Positions 15,567 through 59,649 of a stretch of 64,000 nt of DNA are shown one piece after another. The translations under genes were made by a program, and so were the position numbers. A model generated the notes under the pieces. The model was not told the DNA's origin. It searched no databases and saw only the letters and a list, made by a program, of their open reading frames with translations. The number at the start of each line of letters is the position of its first letter. Positions within the stretch are counted from its first letter, which is position 1. Origin of the DNA: an uncultured archaeon (GTDB taxonomy: Archaea > Thermoproteota > Nitrososphaeria > Nitrososphaerales > Gagatemarchaeaceae); NCBI GenBank assembly GCA_963817525.1, contig CAWFOU010000007.1, positions 608,001-672,000 on the forward strand, read 5' to 3'.

Positions 15567-17054
15567 ATGTCGACCGGAGACATGTCGCTGGCCGTCTCAA
15601 AGGCTCTGTCGCGCGGCTACCAGATAGACCCCGACGCCTTCACCTTCCTCTCGGAACTCTCTGGAAGAGAGAACGTCGAGCCGATCCTTAGGTCAATAAT
15701 CGAGAAGAAAGAGTCGTCAAACTCCGAGAGGCTGATAGTCAGGTCAGACTTCGACGACTTCCTCGCGAAGGATGAGGGGCAAAATCGCGTCGCCGTGGAC
15801 TCCCACGACTTGTTGGCCGACGTCGTCGTTGTGAGCAATCCCACGACAGAGATTCGGCCGGTGGAGGCGGAGAGCGGCTTCAAGAGGCTCTTCCAGGATA
15901 GGTACTCGCACCTCCTAGGCATAGCGAGGCAGAGACCCGACTCGAAGAGCGTCACGACGATTGAGTCTGGTAGGGAGACGCGAGACAAAGAATACAAGAT
16001 TGCGGGGCTCGTCTCCTCCAGGAACAGCAGGAAGGGCGGCGGAGTGGAGCTTGTGCTGGACGACCCCACAGGGAGCGCCAAGCTATACTGCTCGGACGAG
16101 GTCGCCAACTTGGCACTCGCCTTGCCTTTCGACAGTCTGGTTGTGGCCGAAGTGGCCCTCGGGAAAACCGGCCAGCTCTACGCGAGGGATTTGGTCCTTC
16201 CCGATATCCCGAGCAGGAAGTCGGTGGGCTCGCCGCGCAGGGTGTATGCGGTGATGCTTTCGGACTTGCATATCGGCAGCAAACTGTTTCTCGCCGAGGA
16301 TTTTGGGCGCTTCTTGGAGTGGCTCAACGGGAGATTGGGGGACCTTGATATCGTGGAGCGCATCAGGTACGTCATAGTGGCCGGAGACATCGTCGATGGA
16401 ATCGGCGTCTATCCTGGACAGGAGATGCAGCTCTCAGAGAGGAACTTGAGGGGTCAATACCGGGTCGCGAAGGCCTTTCTCGAACAGGTGCCGAAGCACA
16501 TGAAGCTCTTGATAGTTCCCGGGAACCATGATCCCGTGAGGCAGGCCCTCCCCCAGCCGGCTGTGCCCGCGGATGTGGCGACGCCCTTGTACGAGCTGGA
16601 GAATGCCGTGCATCTGGGAGGGCCGGCCAATGTCAAGCTCGACGGGGTGAACTTTTTAATTTATCACGGCAGGAGCCTGGATGACGTCATAGCCACTGTT
16701 CCCGACCTGACCTACGACAGGCCCGTGCAAGCGATGGAGGTCTTGCTCAAGGCGCGACATCTCGCACCCACCTATGGCAAGCGGACGGCATTGTCTCCGG
16801 AGCTCAGGGACATGTTGGTGATAGATCCCGTGCCGGATGTATTCCACGCAGGTCACGTGCACACGCTCGATGTGGGAAGCTACCGTGGCACGCTCGTGGT
16901 GAACTCGGGGACGTTCCAAGCCCAGACGCCTTTTCAAGCCAATATGGGTATAGACCCCATATGCTCGATTGTGCCGATACTGGACCTGTCTACCCTAGAG
17001 GTCGTCAAAAGGAGCTTCACAAAATCTAGTTTCCGAGAGCTACAGCAGGCCTAG
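15567..17054 (+). CDS. polB: DNA polymerase D small subunit DP1
   Basis: SDLHIGS, AGDIVDGIG, PGNHD, YHGRSLDD, RHLAPTYG, GHVH. Confidence 0.93.
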   Translation: MSTGDMSLAVSKALSRGYQIDPDAFTFLSELSGRENVEPILRSIIEKKESSNSERLIVRSDFDDFLAKDEGQNRVAVDSHDLLADVVVVSNPTTEIRPVEAESGFKRLFQDRYSHLLGIARQRPDSKSVTTIESGRETRDKEYKIAGLVSSRNSRKGGGVELVLDDPTGSAKLYCSDEVANLALALPFDSLVVAEVALGKTGQLYARDLVLPDIPSRKSVGSPRRVYAVMLSDLHIGSKLFLAEDFGRFLEWLNGRLGDLDIVERIRYVIVAGDIVDGIGVYPGQEMQLSERNLRGQYRVAKAFLEQVPKHMKLLIVPGNHDPVRQALPQPAVPADVATPLYELENAVHLGGPANVKLDGVNFLIYHGRSLDDVIATVPDLTYDRPVQAMEVLLKARHLAPTYGKRTALSPELRDMLVIDPVPDVFHAGHVHTLDVGSYRGTLVVNSGTFQAQTPFQANMGIDPICSIVPILDLSTLEVVKRSFTKSSFRELQQA

Positions 17055-18233
17055 AAGCTGCGAGTCCTCTGTGACCACCTTCGTCAGGGTATCGGCCTGA
17101 ATCAGGAGTTTGATTCTCTTGGTCCTTCCCCGTCTGCCCTTGCTCACCACGGCGGCCTCCACCAGGCCCAAAAGGTCGAGTTCGGCGAGTATCCCGCTGA
17201 CCCTTCTCTGGGTCAGCGCTTCGATACCCAGCCGGCGAGCCAGTCCCTCGTAGGCGACGTAGAGATCTCCGGTGTTCGTGCCGTCGGGGAACCTCGAGGC
17301 GGTCAGGAGGATGAGTTTGTTCTGGATGGGGAGTGAGCGCAGTGCGTCGTCAATCCTGTTGCTCTCGACCCTCTCCGACGCCTTGCGGATGCAGTCTTCG
17401 CTGACCTCGTGCTTGCCTTCCCTTTCCGCTATCTCTCCGGCCACGCGCAACAGGTCGACCGCCCGTCTGGCGTCGCCGTGTTCGGAGCCGGCCAAGGCCG
17501 CACAGAGGTTGAGCATCGCGTCGGGGATGACCCCGGGCCTGAACGCGATCTTTGCGCGGGCCGCCAAGATAGCGTAGAGCTCGTCCGTAGTGTATGGAGG
17601 GAATACCAGCTCTTCTTCGCCCAGGCTGCTCAGCACCCGGGGATCGAGTTCATCCTTGAACCTGAGATCGTTCGAGATTCCGACCATCGTGAAGAAGCCG
17701 GGCTCGACGTGCTCGCCGGCGCGGGTGAACTGGTAGAGGATGTCGTCGCCGTACGCGTTAACCAGATAGTCGATTTCGTCTAGGACTAGGATGAAATGGA
17801 TTTTGTTGCCCTTTATGGTGGTGAAGATGCGGTCGAGGACAGTCCCTATCGACAGGCCCGTCCCAGGAATCTTCTTGTCTTGCTCGAGGGGTAGGCAGTC
17901 GGCAATCTTCGCCAGAGTGCGATACTCGGTAGCGGCTATCCTGCTGTTCACATAGCAGGTGAGAATGTTCTTCGAGGCGTCCTGCGTGTGCAACCTGTCG
18001 ACGACCAGCCTTGCCACAGCGGTCTTCCCAGTTCCTGTCTTACCATAGAGGAGGAGATTCGATGGTTTCGAGCCATGGAGAGCGGGAGCCAGAATTTGCG
18101 CGACCTGCCTGGTCTGGCTCTCCCTGTAGGGTAGTTTCTCAGGCACATAGTCGGGCGACAGAGCATCACGGTTTTGAAACAGAGCTCGTCCTTCCTTGGC
18201 CCTCTGGAAGATCTCGTCTACTGCATCAACCAT
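17040..18233 (-). CDS. cdc6: Orc1/Cdc6 replication initiator
   Basis: GKTGTGKT, LDEID, GDARRAVDLLR, C-terminal wHTH SKGRRGRT. Confidence 0.95.
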   Translation of the reverse strand: MVDAVDEIFQRAKEGRALFQNRDALSPDYVPEKLPYRESQTRQVAQILAPALHGSKPSNLLLYGKTGTGKTAVARLVVDRLHTQDASKNILTCYVNSRIAATEYRTLAKIADCLPLEQDKKIPGTGLSIGTVLDRIFTTIKGNKIHFILVLDEIDYLVNAYGDDILYQFTRAGEHVEPGFFTMVGISNDLRFKDELDPRVLSSLGEEELVFPPYTTDELYAILAARAKIAFRPGVIPDAMLNLCAALAGSEHGDARRAVDLLRVAGEIAEREGKHEVSEDCIRKASERVESNRIDDALRSLPIQNKLILLTASRFPDGTNTGDLYVAYEGLARRLGIEALTQRRVSGILAELDLLGLVEAAVVSKGRRGRTKRIKLLIQADTLTKVVTEDSQLLGLL

Positions 18234-18705
18234 GTAGCATCAGTGGAAATATTGCTTTAATTAAGGGATGTCCCCCTCCGTTTCCACTGCAACTCGGTAA
18301 GAAGATGCTAGGTTCTAGCTATACTAAGTAAGAAGATGCTCGCTCTTGGTTCGAATGATTGCTTATTCTCACTGATTGACTAGCCGCCATGACAAATGGT
18401 CTAGAGACAGTGCAGAAGCGCGTGATTCACCCGGGGAGTCATCTCCACCGGAAATGTAGGGGTCCCTCCCCTAATGTGAACTTGATGTGAAACCTCCTTT
18501 GTAACGACGCATACAAGCTCACAGGTTGACGCACACCTAGCATTGACGTCGTTCACAGAAACTAGGTTGATTATAGCCCCTCTGTTTCCACTGGAACCAC
18601 TGTTCTGCCGGGCACCTGTCAACTACTGTGAACATCTGTGAATCACCATTTTCACCTCAGGGCGCGGTCAAACTTTGTTTGCACTCTGTTCACAACTTCA
18701 CACCA
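18234..18705. promoter_or_regulatory. Replication origin oriC with ORB elements at 18272-18293(-), 18442-18462(+), 18577-18597(-)
   Basis: GTTGCAGTGGAAACGGAGGGGG, TCTCCACCGGAAATGTAGGGG and GTTCCAGTGGAAACAGAGGGG match the archaeal ORB consensus with G-string; directly upstream of cdc6; mini-ORB near 18239. Confidence 0.88.
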
Positions 18706-45875: not shown

Positions 45876-47084
45876 ATGATACGAGCCTACTCATTTCGCT
45901 TTTACCCAACTTCAAAGCAATCTCAGAGGCTCGAAGAGACGCTTGAACTGTGCCGATTACTCTACAACGCCGCGCTAGAGCAACGCAGGTATGCCCGCGG
46001 CCTAGGGCAACCAATCTCCTACCACATCCAGCAAAACCAACTCCCCGAATTGCAGGAGGTACTGGAGGGGTTCAAGCAGGTTTACTCGCAAGTCTTGCAA
46101 AACGTGTTACGGAGGGTCGATTTTGCCTTCAAGAACTTCTTTGACAGGTGTTCGAGGAGAAAGAAAGGCGAGCGAATCAATGCCGGATATCCTAGATTCA
46201 AACCCTCCTGGAGATACAACTCGTTCACGTATCCGCAAGATGGCTTCAAGATACTGCCCTCCGGCCATATCTTGCTCTCGAAAATCGGAAAGCTGAGGGT
46301 CTTCATGCACAGGAGGATTGCGGGGGAAATCAAGACCCTCACTCTGAAGCGCGATCAAGTCGGAGACTGGTTTGTGGTAATCACTACTAGGCTTGCGGAA
46401 GTCCCACCAATTCAACCAACGTCTGCGCTAGGAGTCGACGTCGGCTTGAAAAGCCTGGTCACGTTGAGCTCCGGCGAACAAACAGAAGCACCGAAGTTCT
46501 TGAGAGTATCTGAACTGAAGTTGACTCGGGCCCAGAGAGCTTTCAGCCGCAAGCTTCCCGGATCTAACAATAGAAAGAAGGCCCGTCTCAAACTGGCCAA
46601 GATTCACAGGAAGATTGCACGACAAAGGGGCGACTTTCTGCACAAGCTTTCGAGGAATCTTGTCCGCAAGACCGACCTGCTGATTTTCGAAAACCTCCAC
46701 ATACCGAACATGACCAAGAACCAAAAGCTGGCGAAGTCAATACATGACGCTTCTTGGGGAACTTTGATTCGATACGCTTCTTACAAGGCTTCGAGCGCCG
46801 GTAGGAAAGTCGAGCAGATAGACCCGAGAGGCACAACGCAACGATGTTCAGGATGCAGAAGTAGCGTCAAGAAATCTCTGTCGGAGAGGGTTCATCGGTG
46901 TCCAATTTGTGGGCTCATCTTGGACAGGGACTTGAATGCGGCGCTTAACATCCTGGACGTAGGGAGGGGCACTCCCGAACTCAAGCCTGAGGAGACTCGG
47001 CCACCGCTTCCGATTTCCGGGAGCGAGCATCGAGTCGAGGAGGCAGGAAGCCCACGACTATTCGTGGGAGGATGTCACGAGTAG
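45876..47084 (+). CDS. tnpB: TnpB RNA-guided endonuclease (IS200/IS605 family), no tnpA
   Basis: RAYSFRFYP, LYNAAL, GYPRFK, RuvC GVDVG / IFENL / DRDLNAALNI, CSGC..CPIC. Confidence 0.95.
   Translation: MIRAYSFRFYPTSKQSQRLEETLELCRLLYNAALEQRRYARGLGQPISYHIQQNQLPELQEVLEGFKQVYSQVLQNVLRRVDFAFKNFFDRCSRRKKGERINAGYPRFKPSWRYNSFTYPQDGFKILPSGHILLSKIGKLRVFMHRRIAGEIKTLTLKRDQVGDWFVVITTRLAEVPPIQPTSALGVDVGLKSLVTLSSGEQTEAPKFLRVSELKLTRAQRAFSRKLPGSNNRKKARLKLAKIHRKIARQRGDFLHKLSRNLVRKTDLLIFENLHIPNMTKNQKLAKSIHDASWGTLIRYASYKASSAGRKVEQIDPRGTTQRCSGCRSSVKKSLSERVHRCPICGLILDRDLNAALNILDVGRGTPELKPEETRPPLPISGSEHRVEEAGSPRLFVGGCHE
47040..47078 (+). mobile_element. IS605-type right end / omegaRNA 3' scaffold: hairpin CCCACGA-CTAT-TCGTGGG, ending GGATGTCAC
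   Basis: GGAAGCCCACGACTATTCGTGGGAGGATGTCAC resembles IS605/IS1341 right ends. Confidence 0.75.
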
Positions 47085-50445: not shown

Positions 50446-50517
50446 GTTCGGACGGCTCTGGTGCGTCTTAGGGAGATAGGCCCTCGAGAACTTATGGTGG
50501 TGCATCTCGGGAGATGG
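50446..50517 (+). repeat. 72-bp inverted repeat, left copy (partner 51226-51297)
   Basis: 66/72 identity to the reverse complement of 51226-51297, aligned by eye. Confidence 0.9.
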
Positions 50518-50606
50518 CATCTCAGCGCTGGTAGTGGCCCCCATCGGCACCGTTCGGACAAAGATGTATTAGTTACTAACTGACCCTGATAGAATCGTGC
50601 CGCCTT

Positions 50607-51209
50607 ATGCCATCGAGAACAGCGGTCGGAACAGTGGCAATCGTCCTCGGCATCGTGATCGTAATTGCAGCAACAGGCGCCATCTTCTATGTCAACGAAT
50701 CAGCTACCAATCCAGTCCAAATACACACACTGTCAACGACTTCCATCACCTCAGTCAGGACAATAGTTTCCAGTCAGTCCGCGACATCAAGTTCAGCCGC
50801 GACCTCCGCAGATTCTGAAACGTGCTACCAAGGCTCAGTGCCCACGAACACCTCGGCGTCTGGCAGCCAATCGGCATACAGCAGAACCGTCTTCAATGTC
50901 ACACAGGAATTCAATTCGTGGAGTTGGATGTCCTTGTCCACCTTCAAGGTCGGGTCGTATACCTTCGTCACTACAAACCCCGCAACGACCCAGGGCGTCA
51001 CCACGTTGGAGCCTCAACTATTCTTCAATGTGACGAACAGTCAAGGCCAGATGCAAACAACCAGTTTTACGAATCTGGGCGGCTGGAACGGCCAAGTGTG
51101 GCCTCCTGACATGGGGCTTCAGGCAGCGCTCTTCGGAGGGGATGCGACCATACAGTGGCTCTTTCTTTGCAACAGTCAGAATGTCTTCTTGGAGGTAACA
51201 ACGCAGTAG
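50607..51209 (+). CDS. Membrane-anchored/secreted Ser/Thr-rich protein
   Basis: N-terminal TM, S/T linker, beta-rich domain with a Cys pair. Confidence 0.75.
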   Translation: MPSRTAVGTVAIVLGIVIVIAATGAIFYVNESATNPVQIHTLSTTSITSVRTIVSSQSATSSSAATSADSETCYQGSVPTNTSASGSQSAYSRTVFNVTQEFNSWSWMSLSTFKVGSYTFVTTNPATTQGVTTLEPQLFFNVTNSQGQMQTTSFTNLGGWNGQVWPPDMGLQAALFGGDATIQWLFLCNSQNVFLEVTTQ

Positions 51210-51225
51210 GTTAACAGAATCTTTT

Positions 51226-51297
51226 CCATCTCCCGAGTTGCACCAGCATAAGTTCTCGAGGGCCTATCTCCCGAAGACGCACTAGAGCCGTTCGGAC
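51226..51297 (-). repeat. 72-bp inverted repeat, right copy
   Basis: See 50446-50517. Confidence 0.9.
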
Positions 51298-51345: not shown

Positions 51346-52095
51346 ATGGCGCAGACTGTCAATGGCAACAAGAGTCTTGTTTACGTAGCTTCGGCAATAC
51401 TCGCCGCTGGAATTCTTGTTTCTGCCGGACTTATTCTCGTCCCTACATCGCACTCCACGACGACCGTGACGTCCACTTCCACGACGACCTCGACGACGAC
51501 TCTAACGACGTACCCCGGGCTCCTCGCCTATTGTGCCTCCGCGAACTCCTACACACAACATGAGAACGTGGATATGGTGGTCGGGACCAGCCCTCCGGCG
51601 ATCCTCTGCCTTCAGCTCTACGATATCAACTCGACCTCCCCTATCGTAGTCGACACTGCCAGTCTAGTTTCGGTCCAGGGTTCCGAGCAGGGATTCGTCG
51701 GCGGAGGGAATTTCACGGTCATCGCGAGTCAGGACCAACTCACACTGGGGGGACCCTCGAACCTCAATGAAGGCACGATTGTCGCGTACGCCATCACGGC
51801 CAGACCAGGCGCGAACGGCACCTACTCGCTGCAGATTGGCGGTTGGCATCTCATAGGCATAGATGAGGAGCTGTGCCCGTTCTACGGTCAAGTCATCGCG
51901 GGGACGGGGCAGCCCAACTATTTTCGCGGCTTGGATGGCGGTGGCTCCCCCTGCACAGTCATCAATACTCTGCCAAATGGCTCAGTGAAGCTAAGCCCGG
52001 CAGAGGAGTCTGAGATTCCAGGAGTAGCAAACGGCTATGTCATGAACAGCACCCTCTACTTCAAAGCCATCGACGTCGTCGATTCAACACAATGA
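51346..52095 (+). CDS. Membrane-anchored Thr-rich surface protein, paralog 1
   Basis: TM, poly-T linker, PAILCLQLY, GGGNFT..SQ.QLTLGGPSN..EGT.VAYAITA.PGA. Confidence 0.8.
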   Translation: MAQTVNGNKSLVYVASAILAAGILVSAGLILVPTSHSTTTVTSTSTTTSTTTLTTYPGLLAYCASANSYTQHENVDMVVGTSPPAILCLQLYDINSTSPIVVDTASLVSVQGSEQGFVGGGNFTVIASQDQLTLGGPSNLNEGTIVAYAITARPGANGTYSLQIGGWHLIGIDEELCPFYGQVIAGTGQPNYFRGLDGGGSPCTVINTLPNGSVKLSPAEESEIPGVANGYVMNSTLYFKAIDVVDSTQ

Positions 52096-52110
52096 ATGTG
52101 TGAGAGCACT

Positions 52111-52899
52111 ATGCCATTACAGGTGAATCGTAGGAGAAGCATCGGTTACGTCATCGCAGCGATGGTTGTCGCCGGAATCCTCGTGTCAACAACGCTCATC
52201 CTCGTCCCTCGGTCGCTCTCCACGACCACCACAGTGTATGCGACCGCGACAGAGACGACCACATTGACCGCTACACAGACGATGACGCTCGCAAACGTGT
52301 CAACCCGAAGCGCGGGAATCAACGCCTCAAACAGCGCAGCGCTCCTCGCAGCTTGCGCGTCCACGCACTCTACATCAACGGGCTACGTGGTTATCGGGCC
52401 TAGCTCTCCCGCGATTGTCTGTCTCCAGCTCTACGAATTCAACTCGAACTCGTCCATCGACCTGAACACCACGGGTCTCCTTTCAGTCGGAGGTTCAGAG
52501 GAGGAGTTCGGGCCGAGCATCGGCGGAGGCAACTTCACCATTCAGACGAGCCAGGGTCAGCTGACACTGGGAGGCCCCTCCAACGCCGATGAAGGCACGA
52601 CTGTCGCGTACGCCATCACGGCCAAGCCAGGGGCGAGCGGGCAGTACGCCTTGTTAATAGACGGCTGGAATGTCCCGGGCGAGGGAGGTGCGCCGGAGGA
52701 ATGTCCAAGCTGGGGAGTGCTCTTCGCAGGGAATGGTGAGCCCGACTACGCTATGAACGGGCCGATAGGCTCGTGCATAACTATTGTTTCATCAGCTCCG
52801 CCGAGTACACCGCAGCCTTTCTCAATCCCGGGAGTCAACTACGTCACGAGCAACACTCTCTACTTCAATGTAGTCGCCGTCATTGATTCAGTCCAATGA
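52111..52899 (+). CDS. Membrane-anchored Thr-rich surface protein, paralog 2
   Basis: Same blocks as 51346-52095 (PAIVCLQLY, GGGNFT..LTLGGPSN..EGT.VAYAITA, TLYF..DS.Q). Confidence 0.8.
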   Translation: MPLQVNRRRSIGYVIAAMVVAGILVSTTLILVPRSLSTTTTVYATATETTTLTATQTMTLANVSTRSAGINASNSAALLAACASTHSTSTGYVVIGPSSPAIVCLQLYEFNSNSSIDLNTTGLLSVGGSEEEFGPSIGGGNFTIQTSQGQLTLGGPSNADEGTTVAYAITAKPGASGQYALLIDGWNVPGEGGAPEECPSWGVLFAGNGEPDYAMNGPIGSCITIVSSAPPSTPQPFSIPGVNYVTSNTLYFNVVAVIDSVQ

Positions 52900-52957: not shown

Positions 52958-54199
52958 TCAGGCCAAGTCAAATTCGCGTGTTTGTCGCTGCCCACCATCA
53001 TGAGGAGCCATCATCGGGTGCCTCCTTAACGGAAACTCATCAGGGGGCCAAATAACCGATGCGTAGAAACACCCTTTGCAGTATGCTTGCGCGTTGAAAA
53101 ACTCGAAGGCTCTTTGAGCTTCACGAAGCTTCTGGCCAACCAAGTAGGGCTGAATCTCCCTGAGAACGCGCAAGGCCCTGATCCCTGCGACGCCCTTCCT
53201 CCACAGCGGCTGCCAGCCGAGCGGCCTCTCCTTTGGCTTCTCCGGCCTCGGAAGCCCACATAAATCGGCAAATTGGAAGACCGGCTGCGGATCAGTCATC
53301 CTGAGATCCAAATCAACCGTAGTGGTGTCAAACTTCTTCAGGTAATGGGAGCCGATGCGAACCTCGCCCTGCACCAAGCCTCCTACCCATGCTCGATCAT
53401 CGTCCGATTGGATAACAACCTCGGGAACTTTCCACTGATTCATTAGGTCTGAGCTATTGCGAACTTCTGGCCATACACGTAATGCATCATTCCGGTCCCT
53501 CCTGACGAGGGAATGGAGAAGCGGGTGTTCGAGGTAATTCTGCGGTGTAGTCGTCTCGTCGGCGGCCATTCGTAATCCACCTCGTTTCTTGGTTCTCCAC
53601 GGAAATTCACCGCGCGACCAGATGTCGAGATTCCCGAAGCACCCTGAATGGCTCCCATATGGAGAGAAGAAAGACAACGCCTTTTCCGCTTCTTTCAGCT
53701 TCTCGCCAAGCAAGAAAGGCTGTAGCTCCTGCAGAACTCTGAAGGCCCGCAGGCCCGAGACGTTCTTGTGCCAGTTGGGCTTCCAATCATGATTCTTGAC
53801 TGGTTTTGACGGGTGCGACAGCCCGACGTAGTCAGAAAACTTGAAGACGGGCTCAGGGTCGGTCATCGAAACGTCGATGTTGAGGCAGGTCACATCGTAT
53901 CGCGTGTAGAATCTGGCTTGGATGCATCCTTCCGCTTGGGTCAGCCCTGCGACCCAGCGTCTACCTGTGGTCGTGGGGATAATCACTTGCGGAATGTTGC
54001 GCTGCATGATTTCTCGCATCTGTGGCCGCCTGGACCACTCGTGCGGCGACTCAATCGCGAAGCGTTTCATGTGATAACGGACCGTCCCGGGAGTCCGATA
54101 TCCCAGCCTGTCCGCTGCCTCCGCCAGGCCCTTGCTCGTCCTCACGACCTCTTCGAAATACGGTAGCCACTGCGGGCTCCCAAAGGGCGGCCGGGGCAT
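52958..54199 (-). CDS. HTH plus tandemly duplicated LAGLIDADG-like domain protein
   Basis: N-terminal LAEAADRLGY..GTVRYHMKR; two ~150-aa repeats (WVAGLTQAEG..MTDP..LQPFLLGEK and WVGGLVQGEV..MTDP..IQPYLVGQK). Confidence 0.75.
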   Translation of the reverse strand: MPRPPFGSPQWLPYFEEVVRTSKGLAEAADRLGYRTPGTVRYHMKRFAIESPHEWSRRPQMREIMQRNIPQVIIPTTTGRRWVAGLTQAEGCIQARFYTRYDVTCLNIDVSMTDPEPVFKFSDYVGLSHPSKPVKNHDWKPNWHKNVSGLRAFRVLQELQPFLLGEKLKEAEKALSFFSPYGSHSGCFGNLDIWSRGEFPWRTKKRGGLRMAADETTTPQNYLEHPLLHSLVRRDRNDALRVWPEVRNSSDLMNQWKVPEVVIQSDDDRAWVGGLVQGEVRIGSHYLKKFDTTTVDLDLRMTDPQPVFQFADLCGLPRPEKPKERPLGWQPLWRKGVAGIRALRVLREIQPYLVGQKLREAQRAFEFFNAQAYCKGCFYASVIWPPDEFPLRRHPMMAPHDGGQRQTREFDLA

Positions 54200-54639
54200 C
54201 AGCTAGCGCCTCCCAGCCTCGTTATGGCCGAGCCCAACTCATCGATCGAATACGCCACGCCGTCGGCGTGGGCCAGGACTTCGCGGAGCACCCTTGCGAG
54301 CGTGACGGGTTCCTCGTGGGGCGCCTCGGCGAGCGCGACGCAGCGGATCCCCGGGTGCGAGCCCTTCAGGCGTTTGAACTTCACGTCGATGAACGCGGCG
54401 TTCCTCTCCATCCAGCCCAGAGCGACCCCCCTCCTTCCGATGGTCTTCCAGCATTCTAGGACCGTCCTGCGGTCGCTCAGGAAAAAGTCCACCACGATCA
54501 GCCTGCCCCCGTTGGCGAAGACCGCGTGGGTGAGGTGGGTAAGGCCCAGCTCGAGGAGGAGGTCGCGGACCTGCCTTTCCTGCTCCGTGAGGGGTATCAG
54601 GGCGTGCGCTCGGGTCATCCATTTTGAAGACGGGTTCAT
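54199..54639 (-). CDS. PD-(D/E)xK/Vsr-like nuclease-fold protein
   Basis: QERQVRDLL..LG...IVVDFFL...VLECW; TGATG overlap with the LAGLIDADG gene. Confidence 0.6.
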   Translation of the reverse strand: MNPSSKWMTRAHALIPLTEQERQVRDLLLELGLTHLTHAVFANGGRLIVVDFFLSDRRTVLECWKTIGRRGVALGWMERNAAFIDVKFKRLKGSHPGIRCVALAEAPHEEPVTLARVLREVLAHADGVAYSIDELGSAITRLGGAS

Positions 54640-54779
54640 TGGAATAGTAGGATTATGGGCTATTTAATCACCACAAGGGTTTTATCTTGCTTAGTTATCT
54701 AATAGAGGCGATATTCTAGCTAATTTGGTCTTTATGCCCGAGAACGCTTATCTTCCCAAGGCTCCAAGCAGTTCGCGGG

Positions 54780-57579
54780 TTGAGTCCGAGGCTCGCGGAG
54801 CCCGCCCCACTTGCAAAGACCGAGTTCCTTACTGTTGATCAGAGAGGCTCTTGGAGCCCCGCCCAAGTCGCCGACAGAATCTACGACAGTTCGCGCACCT
54901 ACAGGAAAGAGCATTGCGCCATCTTCATCGACCCAGACTCGGTCGATGACTTTCTCCACGCCTCAGGTCTACAAGTGGACTTTCTAGACCCAGACGAAAA
55001 CTCGCACTGGACGGGAGTGCAAAGACCAGTCCACCCGAAGCTGAAGCCCATTCTGGTTGGAGACTATGATGAGTGGTTTCGCTGGTTCATGAAGTGGCAG
55101 AGGTTCAACGCTTTCCACATCATCGTCCTCATCAACCCAATCCGGAGGATGATTGATGACGACAGGAGGGGGTACTATGACGGCCTCCTCACGCGCCTGC
55201 TCAACAAGCAAGGCGTCCACAGAATCATCATTGTCGAAGAGGAGCGCTTCCAGCCGACGCTCAGAAGATGGATGGGCGGCGCCGTCCCCGGTGAGGAGGA
55301 CCAAGAGCTCAAGGCGAAGTTCGGGCAGAAGCAGTTCAGGGATGCGATATGCTCCATTCTCTATGGCACGCTCCTCTCCAACAGAAACCTCTCTGCTGCT
55401 GCCGCGAGTACCTTGTTCTCGAAGGTGAACCCAGCCTGGGAGCCGGCGCTCCAGGACCTGAAGCGCAAGGCTTTCCAGGTCGCAAGGACGCACCGCTGGT
55501 TCTACTCACTGGGGGACTATGGGAAGGAGATAGTCGAGGGCCTCGAGACGCCGGCGGTTCGGAAAACACTCGAGGATCCGCAGCAGTCGATTCCACCCCT
55601 GTTCAAGAGGAGAGGCAAGAGGTGCCCCTCGGAGCTCAACCAGGAATGGCTCGAGGGCCTCACGCAGTCCCTCCTTGACTCCCAAGGCTGGTTCACGGTC
55701 GCGGGCCTCTACCAGCACGTCGACGCCCAGACGCAGAGGGTGATCCAGACGTCAGGTTATCGCCCCCAGATTTTCAACGATCACTTTGACGACGAGCTGC
55801 CTAGCGAGATGCATGTCTGGGCGCCGAGTCGCCCACTCCTGCGTGGCATCGCCGAGAGGCTCGCGCAGGAGGGGAAGCTGCAGAAGGCCACCTGGGTAAG
55901 GGAGATCGGGCGGCCCACCACCGTCTATCACCTGCCAGGACAGCTGCCGTTCGACGCCAAGAACCGGTGCGGGCAGTGCGCTTTCTACGTCCCCTTGAGG
56001 CGCCAGTGCAGAATCTGGTGGCTCCTCGACAAGTCCTACGGCTCCAGATACGAAAGGTGGGGGAGGGATGGGGCTCGCCCGCTCTCGGGCTTCGAGATTC
56101 ACAAGATGAGGAACTCCTGGCGCATAGGCCCACATTCGTCCGCGTGCTCGAAGTTCGTCGACAAGAAGAAGGACTACAGCCGGCTCTCACTCCCCGAGCT
56201 CTGCGACGTGTGCCAAGAACGGCTTCCCGAGACGCCGCCAAAGTGGTCGATGGTGGTCTGCGGCACCTGCAGGACCCGATACTTCAGGCTCAGGCAAGGC
56301 AAGGTGAAGGTGCTCACGAGCTACGAGCACGAGTTCGAGAAGCGCTACCACGAGCTGGCGGGCGTAGACCGAGCATCGGACATTAAGCGCCTGATTGAGG
56401 AAAGGCAGGGCTCTGCGGGAAGCATCGTGGAGCAGGCCATATTCGACGAGCGCCGCCACGCGGGCGTCGACGACCCAGACTCTGCCCCCAAGACGGTGAT
56501 GCTGTTCCCCGGCGACAGGATGCTCGCGAGGGACGGGAGGCTCTACGTCTTCAAGAGGCGCAATGTGGAGTCGCTCCCCCTCGCGGGCAGCACAATAATC
56601 GACCACGGCGGCGTGGTGAACGAGGAGCAGAGGGGCGCCCTAGAGAGCGCCGGGACGACCGTGAGGTCAATCTCGAAGTCACCGGGTCTCAACAGCACCG
56701 GAGGGCCTCCGCCAAAGAGGTACGACATCGCCCCCGCCGTGGATAAGGTGGTCGGCGAGTACCCGGAGTTCCTGCGCCGGATGTCCCTCGCGATGGTCCA
56801 GAGCTCGATTCACGCCACGGAGCGCGTCGGCTCCCTCGCCCACATGTCGGAGGACGACGTGCAGACCTTCACCAGAAAGCAAAGGATGTACGCGCGACGT
56901 CTCGAGCGCGCGCCTCCAACCAGGTTCTTGGTCTATGAGGCCCTATCCATGAAGGAGTACTGGAACTGCTACTACCTGGTGCTCAAGGGCGCGTTTCAGA
57001 GGTTCGGCCCGCGCAAGAAGGCCCGGTTCGTGAGGGAGTTCGTCACAAACCCCGCGGGGAGGGCAAGGGGCTACACCGCGGTTGACGCGGCGATAAACTA
57101 CCTTCACCAGAGGAGATTCTTCAAGGCGAGGGCGGTCAACGTCCAGCTCGGCCTCGATTTCAACCCGGGAGAGGGATTCCTCCACAGGAAGAGGTGGAAC
57201 CCCGAAGGCCTCGGGCTGATCTTTGACCTCATCGACCCCTTCAAGTTCGCCGACAGAGAGAAGCTGCTCGGGGCCATCCTGGACGTCAGCGTGAACTGGA
57301 GGGACTTTTACGGCGCGACCGACAGGTCCGGGGCGCGGTTCTACTACCCAAAAGCCGGAGGCCATCGGTGTCCTCGAAGCGGTTGGCGAGGCGGCAGACA
57401 ATATGCCTGTGAATTACCAAGGAGAGAAAATTACGCTCGTAGAGGCTTACCGAAACGCCGTCTTGAGGCTAATCCAGAACCTGCAAGGCGGCACGCCAGC
57501 CTCATTCACACCCTTCGTCTTCCAAGGGTCAAATTCAGCGCTCAAGAGGAATGGAACGCCCCAGGCGGAGGCGCAATGA
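54780..57579 (+). CDS. cas1: Large Cas1-fusion protein (~932 aa after correcting one extra A at 57350-57353)
   Basis: Cas1 beta domain from 56490 (VMLFPGDRMLARDGRLYV..SLPL..VV....LESAG.TV); helical domain YEALSMKEYW, DAAINYL, GLDFNPGEGFLH, LIFDLIDPFK. A Cas1-like tail (VNYQGEKITL..LIQNL.G..FTPF) lies in the +1 frame. Confidence 0.82.
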
Positions 57580-57759: not shown

Positions 57760-59649
57760 ATGGCGCCCGCGTCTCCTCTAGCCTCTATGCTGCATATCCA
57801 TGGAGAAAAAGTAAACCGGGTCTCAAAGGCAGTCCTACTATTGGCCCTACTGGCCGTCGCAGCGGTGTTTCTGATTTCCCCCGCTTCGGTAAACGCGGAG
57901 AGCGTGGGGACATGGAACCAGACCACCAGCTTCCCTGTTGCTGGTACCTCCTGCACCGCATACGCCGGGTACGCTTACTGCGTCGATGGCCAATATTCCT
58001 ACTACGGCCAGCTCACATCGTCAGGCATCGCTTCCTGGACGGCCACCACCAGCTATCCGGACACTGTAGACGCGGACCAGACGTGCGCCGCATCAGCAGG
58101 ATACATCTATTGCGTTGGGGGGACACCCACCTCAGGCGGCTCCGCTCCCAGCGATTACGCGTATTATGCTACCGCTACTGCATCTGGGATAGGGGCCTGG
58201 ATCGAGACCTCTGACTATCCGACCTTCATAACCGGTGTCTCATGCGTGATCTCGGCAGGATACATCTACTGCGCGGGAGGCGAGACGGGCGATGGCACCT
58301 TACAAACAGGCTTCGCCGCGTACGCGCCGGTCTCCTCGTCAGGCATCGGGACGTGGACGACCACCACTACGTATCCCCACCAAGTAGTTTCCCCCAACTG
58401 CGTGACTTCGAGTAGATACATCTACTGCGCCGGCGGGATGGGGGTCGTAGACGTCGGCCCCGAAAATACGACCGCTTACGCCGCCCTCTCCTCCTCGGGA
58501 ATAGGTCCTTGGACCGAGGGCCCACTCTATCCGTCGACGATCAGCGGATATGGGGAGTCGCCTTATTCCTGTGTCGCGTCGGACGGCTACATGTACTGCA
58601 TCGGCGCATACAGTTCCTATGAGAGCTCACCTGAGGTCAACTACGCCTCGCTCTCCTCGTCCGGAATCGGGGCATGGACGGCCACGACCGCCTATCCAGG
58701 CACTTCGTCGAGTGGTGACACATGCACTTCATCGGGCGGCTACATCTATTGCGTGGGAGGCGACGGAAGCACCTCTTCAAGTGCCACAGTCTATTACGCT
58801 CAGATAACCGCACCCCCATCTTCGCAGCTGACTGTGACAAGCCAGGACACCAGCGGCAACACGATAAGCGGCTACTACACAGTGCTCAATCAGAGCAACG
58901 CTATTGTGGCCTCAGGATTCACGCCGTACACATTCACTCTGAACGACGGCCAAACCTATACGGTGCAAGTCGACAACTATGGCTCCTGCACGTTCTCGCA
59001 TTGGCTCGACACGGGAAGCACGACGTCAAGCAGGACGGTGTCCATCACCAGCAACACCCAGTACACGGCCGTGTACAGCTGCGCTTCGAGCAGCGGCGGC
59101 CCGTCGAGCGTGACCGTGGACACGGTCAACCAGGATGGCGGCGCGATCACCGGCTACAACATCGCGCTCTATGGGTCGGGTGGTAATTTCATCTCTAGCG
59201 GGTTCTCGCCGGCGAGCTTCAGCACGACCGCGGGCGAGGGGTACGAGCTTGTGGCGGACAGCTACGGGAGCTGCACCTTCAGCCAGTGGTCAAACGGCGC
59301 GAGCGACCCGATGTCCTTCACCGCGACGAGCTCGGCGCAGACTTTCACTGCGGTCTACAACTGCACCAGCACGAACGAGTCCACCATCAACGTCTCCACG
59401 GTGAACTCGTCCGGCACTCCGATCAGCGGATACTACATCACCCTCTGGCAGGATGGCGCTCAGCTTGGGAGCTGCTTCTCCGCCTGCTCGTTCACCGTGG
59501 ACGGCGGACAGTCTTACCAGGTCTTGGCCGACTCCTATGGCTCCGAGACGTTCAGCCACTGGCAGAACGACGGTTCAACGGGCTACGAGACGGTCATGGT
59601 CCCGATCAGCAGCACGACGATCGACCTGACAGCGGTCTACAGTCCATAG
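57760..59649 (+). CDS. Secreted surface protein: ~6 Kelch-like beta-propeller repeats plus 3 beta-sandwich repeats
   Basis: Signal peptide; repeats C...GYIYC.GG / SSSGIG.WT.TT.YP; C-terminal repeats GF.P..FT..GQ.Y.V..D.YG..F.HW. Confidence 0.85.
   Translation: MAPASPLASMLHIHGEKVNRVSKAVLLLALLAVAAVFLISPASVNAESVGTWNQTTSFPVAGTSCTAYAGYAYCVDGQYSYYGQLTSSGIASWTATTSYPDTVDADQTCAASAGYIYCVGGTPTSGGSAPSDYAYYATATASGIGAWIETSDYPTFITGVSCVISAGYIYCAGGETGDGTLQTGFAAYAPVSSSGIGTWTTTTTYPHQVVSPNCVTSSRYIYCAGGMGVVDVGPENTTAYAALSSSGIGPWTEGPLYPSTISGYGESPYSCVASDGYMYCIGAYSSYESSPEVNYASLSSSGIGAWTATTAYPGTSSSGDTCTSSGGYIYCVGGDGSTSSSATVYYAQITAPPSSQLTVTSQDTSGNTISGYYTVLNQSNAIVASGFTPYTFTLNDGQTYTVQVDNYGSCTFSHWLDTGSTTSSRTVSITSNTQYTAVYSCASSSGGPSSVTVDTVNQDGGAITGYNIALYGSGGNFISSGFSPASFSTTAGEGYELVADSYGSCTFSQWSNGASDPMSFTATSSAQTFTAVYNCTSTNESTINVSTVNSSGTPISGYYITLWQDGAQLGSCFSACSFTVDGGQSYQVLADSYGSETFSHWQNDGSTGYETVMVPISSTTIDLTAVYSP

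Follow-up and report, generated by a model that had tools for sequence, protein, structure and literature searches.

A Cas1-family protein with winged-helix and cysteine modules, and a conserved small partner gene, at chromosomal loci of Nitrososphaerota apart from CRISPR and casposon contexts

In a 64,000-nucleotide (nt) stretch of DNA from an uncultured archaeon of the Gagatemarchaeaceae (assembly GCA_963817525.1, contig CAWFOU010000007.1, positions 608,001 to 672,000; hereafter the window), a giant gene on the forward strand at 54780-57579 encodes a protein with a Cas1-like domain at its C-terminus. We assign this protein to a family called fam0. The locus appears to carry a chromosomal module that is lineage-specific to the Nitrososphaerota (Thaumarchaeota), in a frameshifted copy; in this module, the giant gene is accompanied by a small gene of the orphan family fam6. 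We put the probability at about 0.55 that the module encodes an active, cellular DNA enzyme of the Cas1 family that works with fam6 and belongs neither to CRISPR adaptation nor to casposons.

Cas1 is known in two settings, namely the integration of spacers into CRISPR arrays and the transposition of casposons, with CRISPR adaptation usually being derived from the latter. The casposase is laid out with Cas1 at the N-terminus and, in most families, a short helix-turn-helix (HTH) at the C-terminus. To place the window gene relative to these settings, we compared the window with 21 related loci, which lie on 15 contigs from species representatives of GTDB; open reading frames (ORFs) were called in these loci and the encoded proteins clustered. 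Where taxa are given, these loci come from Nitrososphaerota, Thaumarchaeota, Nitrososphaerales, Nitrosopumilales or Ca. Gagatemarchaeum, and one record is titled 'bacterium'.

Results

The C-terminal region has a predicted Cas1 fold and a conserved active site

The Cas1 domain was modelled with AlphaFold2 from a 55-row alignment, the first row of which was the intact ortholog domain L001:11663-12739, which is 85% identical to that of the window. The resulting model has a predicted local distance difference test (pLDDT) value of 87 and a predicted template modelling (pTM) score of 0.88, and begins with five beta strands, then a helix and one more strand, before passing into a helical domain. 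In the window protein, these correspond to a Cas1 N-terminal beta domain (residues ~566-650, positions 56475-56729) and a catalytic helical domain (residues ~651-857, positions 56730-57353), the latter of which continues in the +1 frame, as described below. A Foldseek search of the PDB with this model returned 83 matches at E<=1e-3, those listed being Cas1 or casposase without exception. The top match was the casposase on its integration product (6opm_A; E 3.5e-9, TM 0.56-0.58, 373 columns), followed by type I-C Cas1 (8d3p, 8d3l), PH1245 and A. fulgidus Cas1. The Cas6-RT-Cas1 protein 7kfu is also among the matches, and the archaeal I-B/III Cas1 structures 4wj0 and 4n06 share the fold. According to this model, the C-terminal ~360 residues are a complete two-domain Cas1, as had been read from the window sequence before any database was searched (the original prediction). 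The Cas1 part covers residues ~566-931, and the homologous proteins end a few residues past the last Cas1 helix.

The original prediction had also named four metal-binding residues, and these are borne out by the alignments: E720, H802 and D816 are invariant in a 21-sequence alignment, and D819 is present in at least 90% of its rows. In a profile comparison with hhalign, the Cas1-domain profile aligned to P0158, a canonical Cas1 of 329 amino acids (itself matching PF01867 at 4.5e-59), with a probability of 96.2% and an E-value of 2.2e-9. This alignment pairs the motif YEAL with the Glu motif of P0158, AINYLHQ with AINYLY, GFLH with GLLH, and DLIDPFKF with DLIEPFRP. Within the close family, 49 of 52 rows carry the tetrad E-H-D-D and one carries E-H-D-E, with the remaining two being truncated; among 107 distant representatives, 53 cover all four columns, and 46 of these read E-H-D-D/E. 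Given that the tetrad is both conserved and aligned to that of a canonical Cas1, E720, H802, D816 and D819 are the correct catalytic residues. The catalytic residues of E. coli Cas1 are listed as E141/H208/D218/D221 in the available text of Krupovic 2014.

Sequence profiles recognize the domain more readily in some relatives than in others. Eleven of 15 C-terminal domains from related loci match PF01867 at E<=1 (best 8.6e-8), some relatives clear the cut-off of this family (P0069, 45.5 bits; P0131, 48.4 bits), and the PADLOC Cas1 model matches the window protein at an E-value of 0.0028. The tie between the window protein and the Cas1 structures of the PDB comes from the fold comparison and not from sequence hidden Markov models (HMMs). 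A subgroup of fam0 proteins of ~820 amino acids (in L009, L010, L011, L013, L015 and L017; for example P0043, P0044 and P0047) is without the Cas1 N-terminal beta domain, and retains the catalytic domain and its tetrad.

A small orphan gene accompanies the giant gene

The partner gene fam6 (P0054, 146 amino acids) lies at 54199-54639 on the reverse strand. It is separated from the giant gene by an AT-rich region of 140 nt between the two divergent starts (54640-54779), which is presumably a shared promoter. A fam6 HMM found a copy directly upstream of the giant gene and on the opposite strand in 20 of the 22 loci; the two exceptions are L016, where the giant gene is only a fragment, and L017. 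Paralogs of the giant gene that share a contig (L001/L002/L018, L003/L019/L021 and L005/L020) also have fam6 beside them. It had originally been suggested that the giant gene may stand alone, a view that does not hold with a divergent fam6 neighbor in so many loci, paralogs included, and with a third gene usually following.

We found 156 relatives of fam6 at E<=1e-3, all of them without annotated function, and the named sources among them are Nitrososphaerales or Thaumarchaeota. The conserved residues are E21, H38, E62-C63 and E105, of which E21 and E62 are invariant. The Asp of the 'VVDFF' strand is present in 15 of 15 rows, in two alignment registers, and the Lys position varies between K, R, M, S and C. 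Feature-based Atlas leads for fam6 were PvuRts1I-like (0.90) and DUF559 (0.89), and we suspect from its sequence features that fam6 may have a nuclease-like PD-(D/E)xK fold, a fold defined by an alpha-beta-beta-beta-alpha-beta core bearing D...(D/E)xK residues. When maximum-likelihood trees were built for the Cas1 domain and for fam6, both resolved into the same four groups; only L007 departs, its fam6 falling with the L018/L020/L021 type. This congruence fits a pair that has duplicated and diverged as a unit, and shared ancestry alone would give the same result. A complex prediction with residues 166-917 of P0008 and its own fam6 (1:1, with alignments) returned a score of 0.00 and a mark of 0.32, which amounts to no answer and is neutral on binding.

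The third gene lies downstream of fam6 on the same strand. In the window, this is a fam2 gene (P0055, 413 amino acids; 52958-54199, reverse strand), the ATG of which overlaps the fam6 stop by one base. fam2 takes the third position in the window and seven other loci, and is found elsewhere in L012; other loci have fam35, fam28, fam31 or fam19 in this position, so that at least five unrelated ORF families occur there in all. P0055 appears to consist of an HTH-like N-terminal stretch and two LAGLIDADG-like domain copies, each with a conserved ...GL.QGEG.I motif; the ten Atlas leads named for it are all LAGLIDADG families, with scores of 0.79-0.87, which serve as leads only. LAGLIDADG endonucleases are characterized by the LAGLIDADG helix with its catalytic acidic residue, arranged as a pseudo-dimer of two domains. 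Members of fam35 have weak LAGLIDADG_3 matches (best 2.6e-4). For fam2 there was no Pfam match, a PDB search was empty or at chance level, and an hhalign comparison of fam2 with fam35 was not significant.

The module is fixed among housekeeping genes

The window as a whole encodes the small and large subunits of DNA polymerase D (PolD), Cdc6/Orc1, XPD, a topoisomerase, PCNA, GINS, TFS, RNA polymerase subunit L, L10e and aIF2-alpha. A recurring gene order runs from GINS, TFS, RpoL, an Rrp4-like gene, diphthamide synthase and L10e to the third gene, fam6 and fam0, and then, after further genes, to a UPF0020-type methyltransferase and a SpoU methylase. Of these, L10e is present in 8 of 22 loci and the methyltransferase in 11 of 22, with fam2 in 9 of 22, while the identity of fam0 across the syntenic loci is 48-75%. 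Each of the shared neighbor families occurs in at least two loci, and those represented in our Pfam scan (60 of 65) are either housekeeping families or have no assignment; examples include SRP54, Pus10, a PriS-like primase, KsgA, L21e, Rpb4, ValRS, eIF5A and a Y-family polymerase, and GINS, PCNA, RNA polymerase subunits and ribosomal proteins are further conserved neighbors. A fixed order among housekeeping genes across diverged genomes points to a cellular rather than a mobile module, and judging from these gene orders, the module appears to be inherited vertically, like an ordinary chromosomal gene.

In the ORFs and loci scanned, the hallmarks of CRISPR-Cas loci or casposons do not accompany the module, with the exception of a family-B polymerase at one related locus, in line with what had originally been noted for the window. 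Pfam searches of the window (8+55 ORFs) found no cas2, cas4 or effector genes and no family-B polymerase (PolB), the only DNA polymerase genes being those of the PolD subunits. Likewise, neither cas2 nor cas4 was found among 60 neighbor-family representatives, 22 third-gene ORFs and 129 singleton ORFs within 7 kb in the related loci, and these singletons include no Cas protein of any kind. TRF returned 0 rows for the window, which also contains no repeat family with three or more copies at CRISPR spacing, and a k-mer scan confined to the loci themselves found no CRISPR-like array in the window or in the 21 related loci. No flanking inverted repeat of weight was found: the sole flanking pair is 32 nt long and 72% complementary, and is one of 124 pairs at chance level. 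There were thus no convincing casposon terminal inverted repeats at the module, with target-site duplications having had no separate search. PolB is absent within 7 kb from 20 of the 21 related loci. In the exception, L013, the region downstream of the module copy (L013:12797-17804) holds a Y-family polymerase, a PolB and a Rad51-like gene; in this company, the PolB looks like host replication and repair equipment.

The N-terminal modules recur in helicase-Cas1 proteins

We modelled residues 1-565 of the window protein from a 44-row alignment, with a pLDDT of 86.5 and a pTM of 0.62. The model places an alpha/beta domain at ~10-165, followed by a helical region, a winged helix-turn-helix (wHTH), a Cys region, a beta-rich ribbon and three long helices at 516-560. 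The first of these is a RecA-like domain without Walker motifs and presumably a helicase remnant (residues ~1-170, positions 54780-55289), and leads into a mostly helical region with short beta hairpins (residues ~171-345, 55290-55814). The wHTH (residues ~346-390, 55815-55949) ends in GRPTTVY, and is modelled with a helix at 351-363 and strands at 368-373 and 379-384; R378 and Y383 are invariant. Two Cys4 modules follow, the first formed by C397, C400, C410 and C456 (residues ~391-460, 55950-56159) and the second a CxxC...CxxC zinc-ribbon-like module formed by C475, C478, C494 and C497 (residues ~470-503, 56188-56288), for which a weak PHD-finger-like match was found among PDB sequences (E 0.056). 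All eight cysteines are invariant in both the 21-row and the 44-row alignments, and the wHTH and the two Cys clusters, which were all part of the original prediction, are invariant or nearly so. A helical linker (YEHEF...; residues ~504-565, 56289-56474) connects these modules to Cas1.

A search with the Cas1-domain profile over 1.84 billion representatives retrieved 109 proteins at E<=1e-3. Many of the distant relatives are 1150-2082 amino acids long, with the Cas1 domain near the C-terminus, and among 41 of the resulting proteins that we scanned with Pfam there was a single short canonical Cas1, retrieved at an E-value of 6.6e-4. In P0130 (1169 amino acids), Pfam recognizes DEAD at 31-193, Helicase_C at 237-341, a wHTH at 590-636 and Cas_Cas1 at 791-1059. 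P0131 and P0153 also combine DEAD, Helicase_C and Cas_Cas1, while in P0126 and P0144 Pfam finds DEAD and Helicase_C, and the Cas1-like part is seen only by our family profile. The sequence of P0130 contains a P-loop, a DEAH box, a wing ending ...GRPTMVYF, a CxxC cluster and a CxxC...CxxC ribbon, and its hhalign alignment to the window family spans 374 columns, beginning at the wHTH and ending at the Cas1 active site, with a probability of 98.2% and an E-value of 2.9e-14. A homolog search seeded with P0130 yielded three proteins only.

As rare distant relatives have an intact DEAD/DEAH helicase in front of this wHTH-Cys-Cas1 core, the window protein looks like a degenerate helicase-Cas1 fusion. 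When the N-terminal model was compared with the PDB, the weak Foldseek matches were mostly superfamily 2 (SF2) helicases (Eta, Brr2, the DEAH-box proteins Prp2/22/43, the Pol-theta helicase and Hel308), typically over 170-250 columns. Pfam found no DEAD or Helicase_C match in the window protein, and there is no P-loop in residues 1-350. The description 'helicase-derived' in the original prediction has weak direct support in this protein, with the helicase-Cas1 relatives and the weak fold match speaking for it, and the missing helicase domains and P-loop, together with an hhalign alignment that stops at the wHTH, speaking against it. We infer a helicase origin of the N-terminus from the architecture and the weak fold match, which make it reasonable, and not from demonstrated homology.

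The window copy carries a frameshift

The giant gene starts with TTG at 54780, and its frame 1 stays open on the forward strand to 57737 (985 amino acids). The original prediction had treated 54780-57579 as a single gene; this span is 2800 nt long, which is no multiple of 3, and 57579 is the end of the stop of a +1-frame ORF at 57295-57579, so that a frameshift at 57350-57354 had been passed over. Frame 1 matches the homologs from residue 1 to residue 857, ending in ...RFYYPK (54780-57353), after which its tail of 128 residues has a counterpart in no homolog. The +1 frame past residue 857 reads PEAIGVLEAVGEAAD... and is 65% identical to residues 871-927 of P0004, the closest intact homolog, of which these are the final 57 residues. 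In other words, the C-terminus of the Cas1 domain is encoded by 74 codons in the +1 frame (57355-57579, stop at 57577-57579). In agreement with this, the Cas1-domain profile hits the window in two pieces, with frame 1 matching profile positions 2-291 and frame 2 matching 290-347. A DNA alignment locates a single surplus base in the window at CCAAAAG|CC (57348-57356), in the run AAAA and the following G, where six orthologous loci read CC(A/G)AA(G/A/T)CC. Without it, the intact gene would encode ~931 amino acids and end at 57576. A programmed frameshift was set aside, as the extra base is in none of the six aligned orthologs.

The window is not alone in this respect, with fam0 being broken into at least two ORFs in 7 of 22 loci (L005, L006, L012, L019, L020, L021 and the window); the L018-type paralog is broken in three of four loci. 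Either error-prone assemblies or recurrent decay, of the L018-type paralog above all, may account for the split ORFs. Further long genes of the window are unbroken, including those for DP2 (1165 amino acids), the topoisomerase (720), STT3 (762) and XPD (634).

Other features of the window

Several further elements were seen around the module. A TnpB-type ORF (OrfB_IS605, Cas12f1-like TNB and HTH_OrfB_IS605) lies at 45876-47084 on the forward strand, between GINS and TFS. In related loci this slot is empty or holds a different TNB-domain ORF, and TnpB-like ORFs adjoin the module in L006 and L019. An inverted repeat of 72 nt and 92% complementarity, with arms at 50446-50517 and 51226-51297, surrounds an ORF of 200 amino acids (50607-51209) that has no Pfam or PADLOC match. 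Syntenic loci have no segment corresponding to 50446-51297, which may thus be a small insertion with terminal inverted repeats at its ends. Two tandem paralogs at 51346-52095 and 52096-52899 (forward strand; 249 and 267 amino acids) share blocks of 72-76% nucleotide identity and have no family match; a homolog of theirs follows the giant gene in L001. Just downstream of the giant gene, at 57760-59649 on the forward strand, is a gene for a repeat-rich, secreted-looking protein of 629 amino acids with weak Kelch matches and a repeat period of ~156-160 nt, and a larger Kelch-type homolog lies beside the L002 copy. Lastly, the Cdc6/Orc1 gene (17040-18233, reverse strand) lies between the PolD subunit genes with a non-coding stretch of ~440 nt adjacent to it, and this region (17040-18675) may be a replication origin.

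Discussion

Relation to known Cas1 systems

What appears to be new here within the Cas1 superfamily is the architecture, the partner and the domesticated genomic lifestyle. The casposase (6opm, family 2) shares with the window family the two-domain Cas1 fold, the full catalytic tetrad and the lack of a CRISPR link; casposases with a full tetrad are recorded from archaea, including Thaumarchaeota, in the available parts of Krupovic 2014 and Krupovic 2019. In contrast to casposons, the window family has no PolB, no convincing terminal inverted repeat and a fixed chromosomal site, and in contrast to the casposase, it has Cas1 at the C-terminus behind ~565 residues, no C-terminal HTH and a dedicated small partner gene. 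The two are too diverged for sequence HMM searches to link them. CRISPR Cas1 proteins (I-C, 8d3p; archaeal, 4wj0 and 4n06) share the fold and the active-site motifs, but the window family differs from them by having no cas2, cas4 or array in 22 loci, a sub-gathering Pfam score and large N-terminal additions. The expectation that the gene would fit neither the CRISPR nor the casposon setting was thus upheld by 22 loci without an array, by the lack of cas2 and cas4 in the scanned ORFs, by housekeeping synteny and by a reversed domain order; the comparison of homolog neighborhoods that had been suggested at the outset placed the 21 related loci outside CRISPR-cas or casposon loci, with L013 being the one that has a PolB nearby.

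Cas1-solo group 1 is closer in lifestyle, being a group of Cas1 homologs outside CRISPR loci. As described in the accessible text of Krupovic 2014, which draws on Makarova 2013, this group is confined to Methanomicrobiales and has no member with the full catalytic set; that it lies outside CRISPR loci and shows no sign of horizontal transfer is described there and in the portion of a 2023 casposon review available to us. The window family, in contrast, belongs to Nitrososphaerota and keeps the four residues, which sets it apart by the description of the group in these partial sources.

In type I-F, Cas1:Cas2-Cas3 is a complex of Cas1 with a helicase/nuclease. This machine, as well as RT-Cas1 and Cas4-Cas1 fusions, resembles the window family in coupling Cas1 to a helicase/nuclease or another nucleic-acid enzyme. 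The window family and its relatives differ in that the helicase, or its remnant, is in the same polypeptide as the wHTH and Cys modules and has no CRISPR context, with the fused helicase in the relatives being of the DEAD/DEAH type. A further likeness is to the helicase-wHTH-Cas1 proteins P0130, P0131, P0153, P0161 and P0162, which have a homologous wHTH, both Cys modules and the Cas1 site with E-H-D-D. They differ from the window family in their intact helicase and their size (1134-2082 amino acids), and are rare and metagenomic.

In the searchable full-text literature, we found neither a helicase-Cas1 fusion nor this thaumarchaeal family described, and the phrases 'helicase-Cas1' and 'Cas1-helicase' are absent from it. 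Subscription papers and supplements fell outside this scope, so that a prior mention is possible. There is likewise no mention in the accessible portions of Krupovic 2014, Krupovic 2019 (on thaumarchaeal mobile elements), the 2023 casposon review, the 2025 CRISPR classification and a 2023 deep-clustering paper. Within these bounds, the original suggestion of an undescribed system stands.

Weighing the explanations

A number of observations weigh against an active Cas1-family enzyme that acts with fam6. On the side of Cas1 recognition, the whole window protein has no Pfam match at E<=0.01, the window fragment reaches 15.9 bits on PF01867, whose gathering score is 22.3, TIGR00287 matches the window protein at an E-value of 0.043 with 12.9 bits against a cut-off of 71.7, and neither the full-length nor the Cas1-domain HMM profile found a Cas1 when searched against PDB sequences. 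For the N-terminus, the Foldseek result is weak (two matches at E<=1e-3, TM 0.1-0.2) and also lists Orc1/Cdc6 AAA+ proteins, and the alignment to P0130 begins at the wHTH without extending into the helicase, leaving the first ~350 residues unlinked by sequence. fam6 has no recognizable family or fold, with no Pfam or PDB sequence match, and its PD-(D/E)xK leads are weak. In addition, L013 has a PolB of 818 amino acids ~1.6 kb downstream of the module, and having several paralogs in one genome and a third gene that varies are traits shared with defence or selfish modules. Finally, the window copy is frameshifted and fam0 is divided between ORFs in 7 of 22 loci; the window copy may therefore be inactive, or its extra base a sequencing error, and the splits could be gene decay rather than assembly error. 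The most serious competitor follows from this last point: that the frameshift is real and the gene a pseudogene in this genome, giving a product with a wrong C-terminal tail or no product at all, is a distinct possibility, though we would bet against it. The surplus base relative to six orthologs and the recurrent splitting of fam0 favor it, as do the unbroken long neighbors, which indicate that the assembly is not error-ridden in general. Yet there is no other lesion, both frames being sound elsewhere and sharing 65-82% identity with intact homologs; the surplus base sits in a homopolymer run, which is a frequent site of assembly errors, and the partner gene fam6 is intact.

The remaining explanations concern what the family does. 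The module may be the nuclease or integrase core of an innate defence or conflict system, in which the helicase-derived Cas1, the small nuclease-like partner and the LAGLIDADG-like protein, as a sequence-specific component, would jointly recognize foreign DNA and cut it. Several diverged paralogs per contig, each with its own partner, a third gene drawn from at least five unrelated families, TnpB-type elements nearby in several loci and relatives that fuse an intact DEAD/DEAH helicase to a nuclease-type domain, a layout common among defence proteins, are all consistent with this; we nevertheless hold it to be unlikely, since PADLOC gives weak Cas1 matches only and nothing for the partners, no other defence genes are present among the ORFs scanned, and the main copy, unlike typical defence islands, is fixed among replication, transcription and translation genes at 48-75% identity. 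Less likely again is an integrase of an unrecognized mobile element, casposon-like or otherwise mobilized by Cas1, and without a polymerase of its own. A casposase is the top structural match, the complete tetrad is shared with casposases (Krupovic 2014, in its available parts), the LAGLIDADG-like neighbors, as far as leads go, are of a typically selfish family, and one locus has a PolB within 7 kb. Against this stand the housekeeping synteny on both sides, the lack of convincing flanking inverted repeats, the lack of PolB in the window and in 20 of 21 related loci, with that of L013 looking like a host gene, and a C-terminal Cas1 without the C-terminal HTH of casposases. The wHTH and zinc-finger-like modules, and a helicase part without its motifs, would suit a non-catalytic DNA-binding regulator or scaffold with a Cas1-shaped domain, but all four catalytic positions are retained throughout the family and in the majority of its distant relatives, which is not expected of a purely structural domain and contrasts with Cas1-solo group 1, reported to have lost its catalytic residues in the sources available in part; we regard this reading as improbable. 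The least credible of all is an integrase that acts in trans in CRISPR adaptation, for arrays elsewhere in the genome. The Cas1 fold and intact active site would allow it, and the window covers 64 kb of a contig of ~1.28 Mb, but no cas2, cas4 or array was found at 22 loci, the ~820-amino-acid subgroup is without the N-terminal beta domain, and the divergence from CRISPR Cas1 is extreme, with 109 of 1.84 billion representatives retrieved.

A proposed role for the module

The catalytic activity, DNA substrate, complex formation and physiological role of the module are what we infer from these comparisons. For an active cellular Cas1-family enzyme paired with fam6, we propose a product of ~931 amino acids in the order of a degenerate SF2-helicase-like module, the wHTH, two Cys4 modules that would bind metal, and a two-domain Cas1 with an E-H-D-D metal site, which may have descended from, or be kin to, the rare proteins with an intact DEAD/DEAH helicase ahead of the wHTH, Cys and Cas1 parts. 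The giant gene diverges from fam6 in its direction of transcription, and the third gene, often LAGLIDADG-like, would usually follow fam6 in the same operon. The wHTH, the Cys modules and the helicase remnant would direct the protein to a given DNA sequence or structure; there the Cas1 domain, probably dimeric like other Cas1 proteins, would catalyse cleavage or 3'-OH strand transfer in a metal-dependent manner. fam6 could be an accessory subunit, as Cas2 or Cas4 is for CRISPR Cas1, and the third gene might supply or modulate sequence-specific DNA recognition or cleavage. The original label 'integrase' is read from the conserved active site, and neither an integration target nor repeats or mobile cargo turned up.

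The module would then be a domesticated cellular function, distinct from both CRISPR adaptation and casposons. Its place among replication and information-processing genes, together with its helicase ancestry, suggests a part in repair or recombination on branched or damaged DNA, whereas the existence of several diverged paralogs and the changing identity of the third gene point to a role in conflict or defence. As a more daring proposal, and one that we think doubtful, the family may represent a third Cas1 lifestyle, so far unrecognized, next to CRISPR adaptation and casposons: an ancient helicase-wHTH-Zn-Cas1 machine, fixed and vertically inherited in Nitrososphaerota, with an obligate small subunit and a sequence-specific endonuclease-like companion, that cleaves the host chromosome or transfers strands on it in a programmed or repair-linked manner.

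If the proposed function is correct, a chromosomal, vertically inherited, catalytically intact and helicase-derived Cas1 with a conserved partner would widen the known roles of Cas1, and would supply a scaffold for a self-targeting integrase or nuclease in which wHTH and zinc modules are already built in. Its members would, in addition, be outgroups with which the Cas1 tree could be rooted. Should the helicase-Cas1 fusions branch deep in that tree, they could resemble the cellular ancestor of casposases and CRISPR Cas1.

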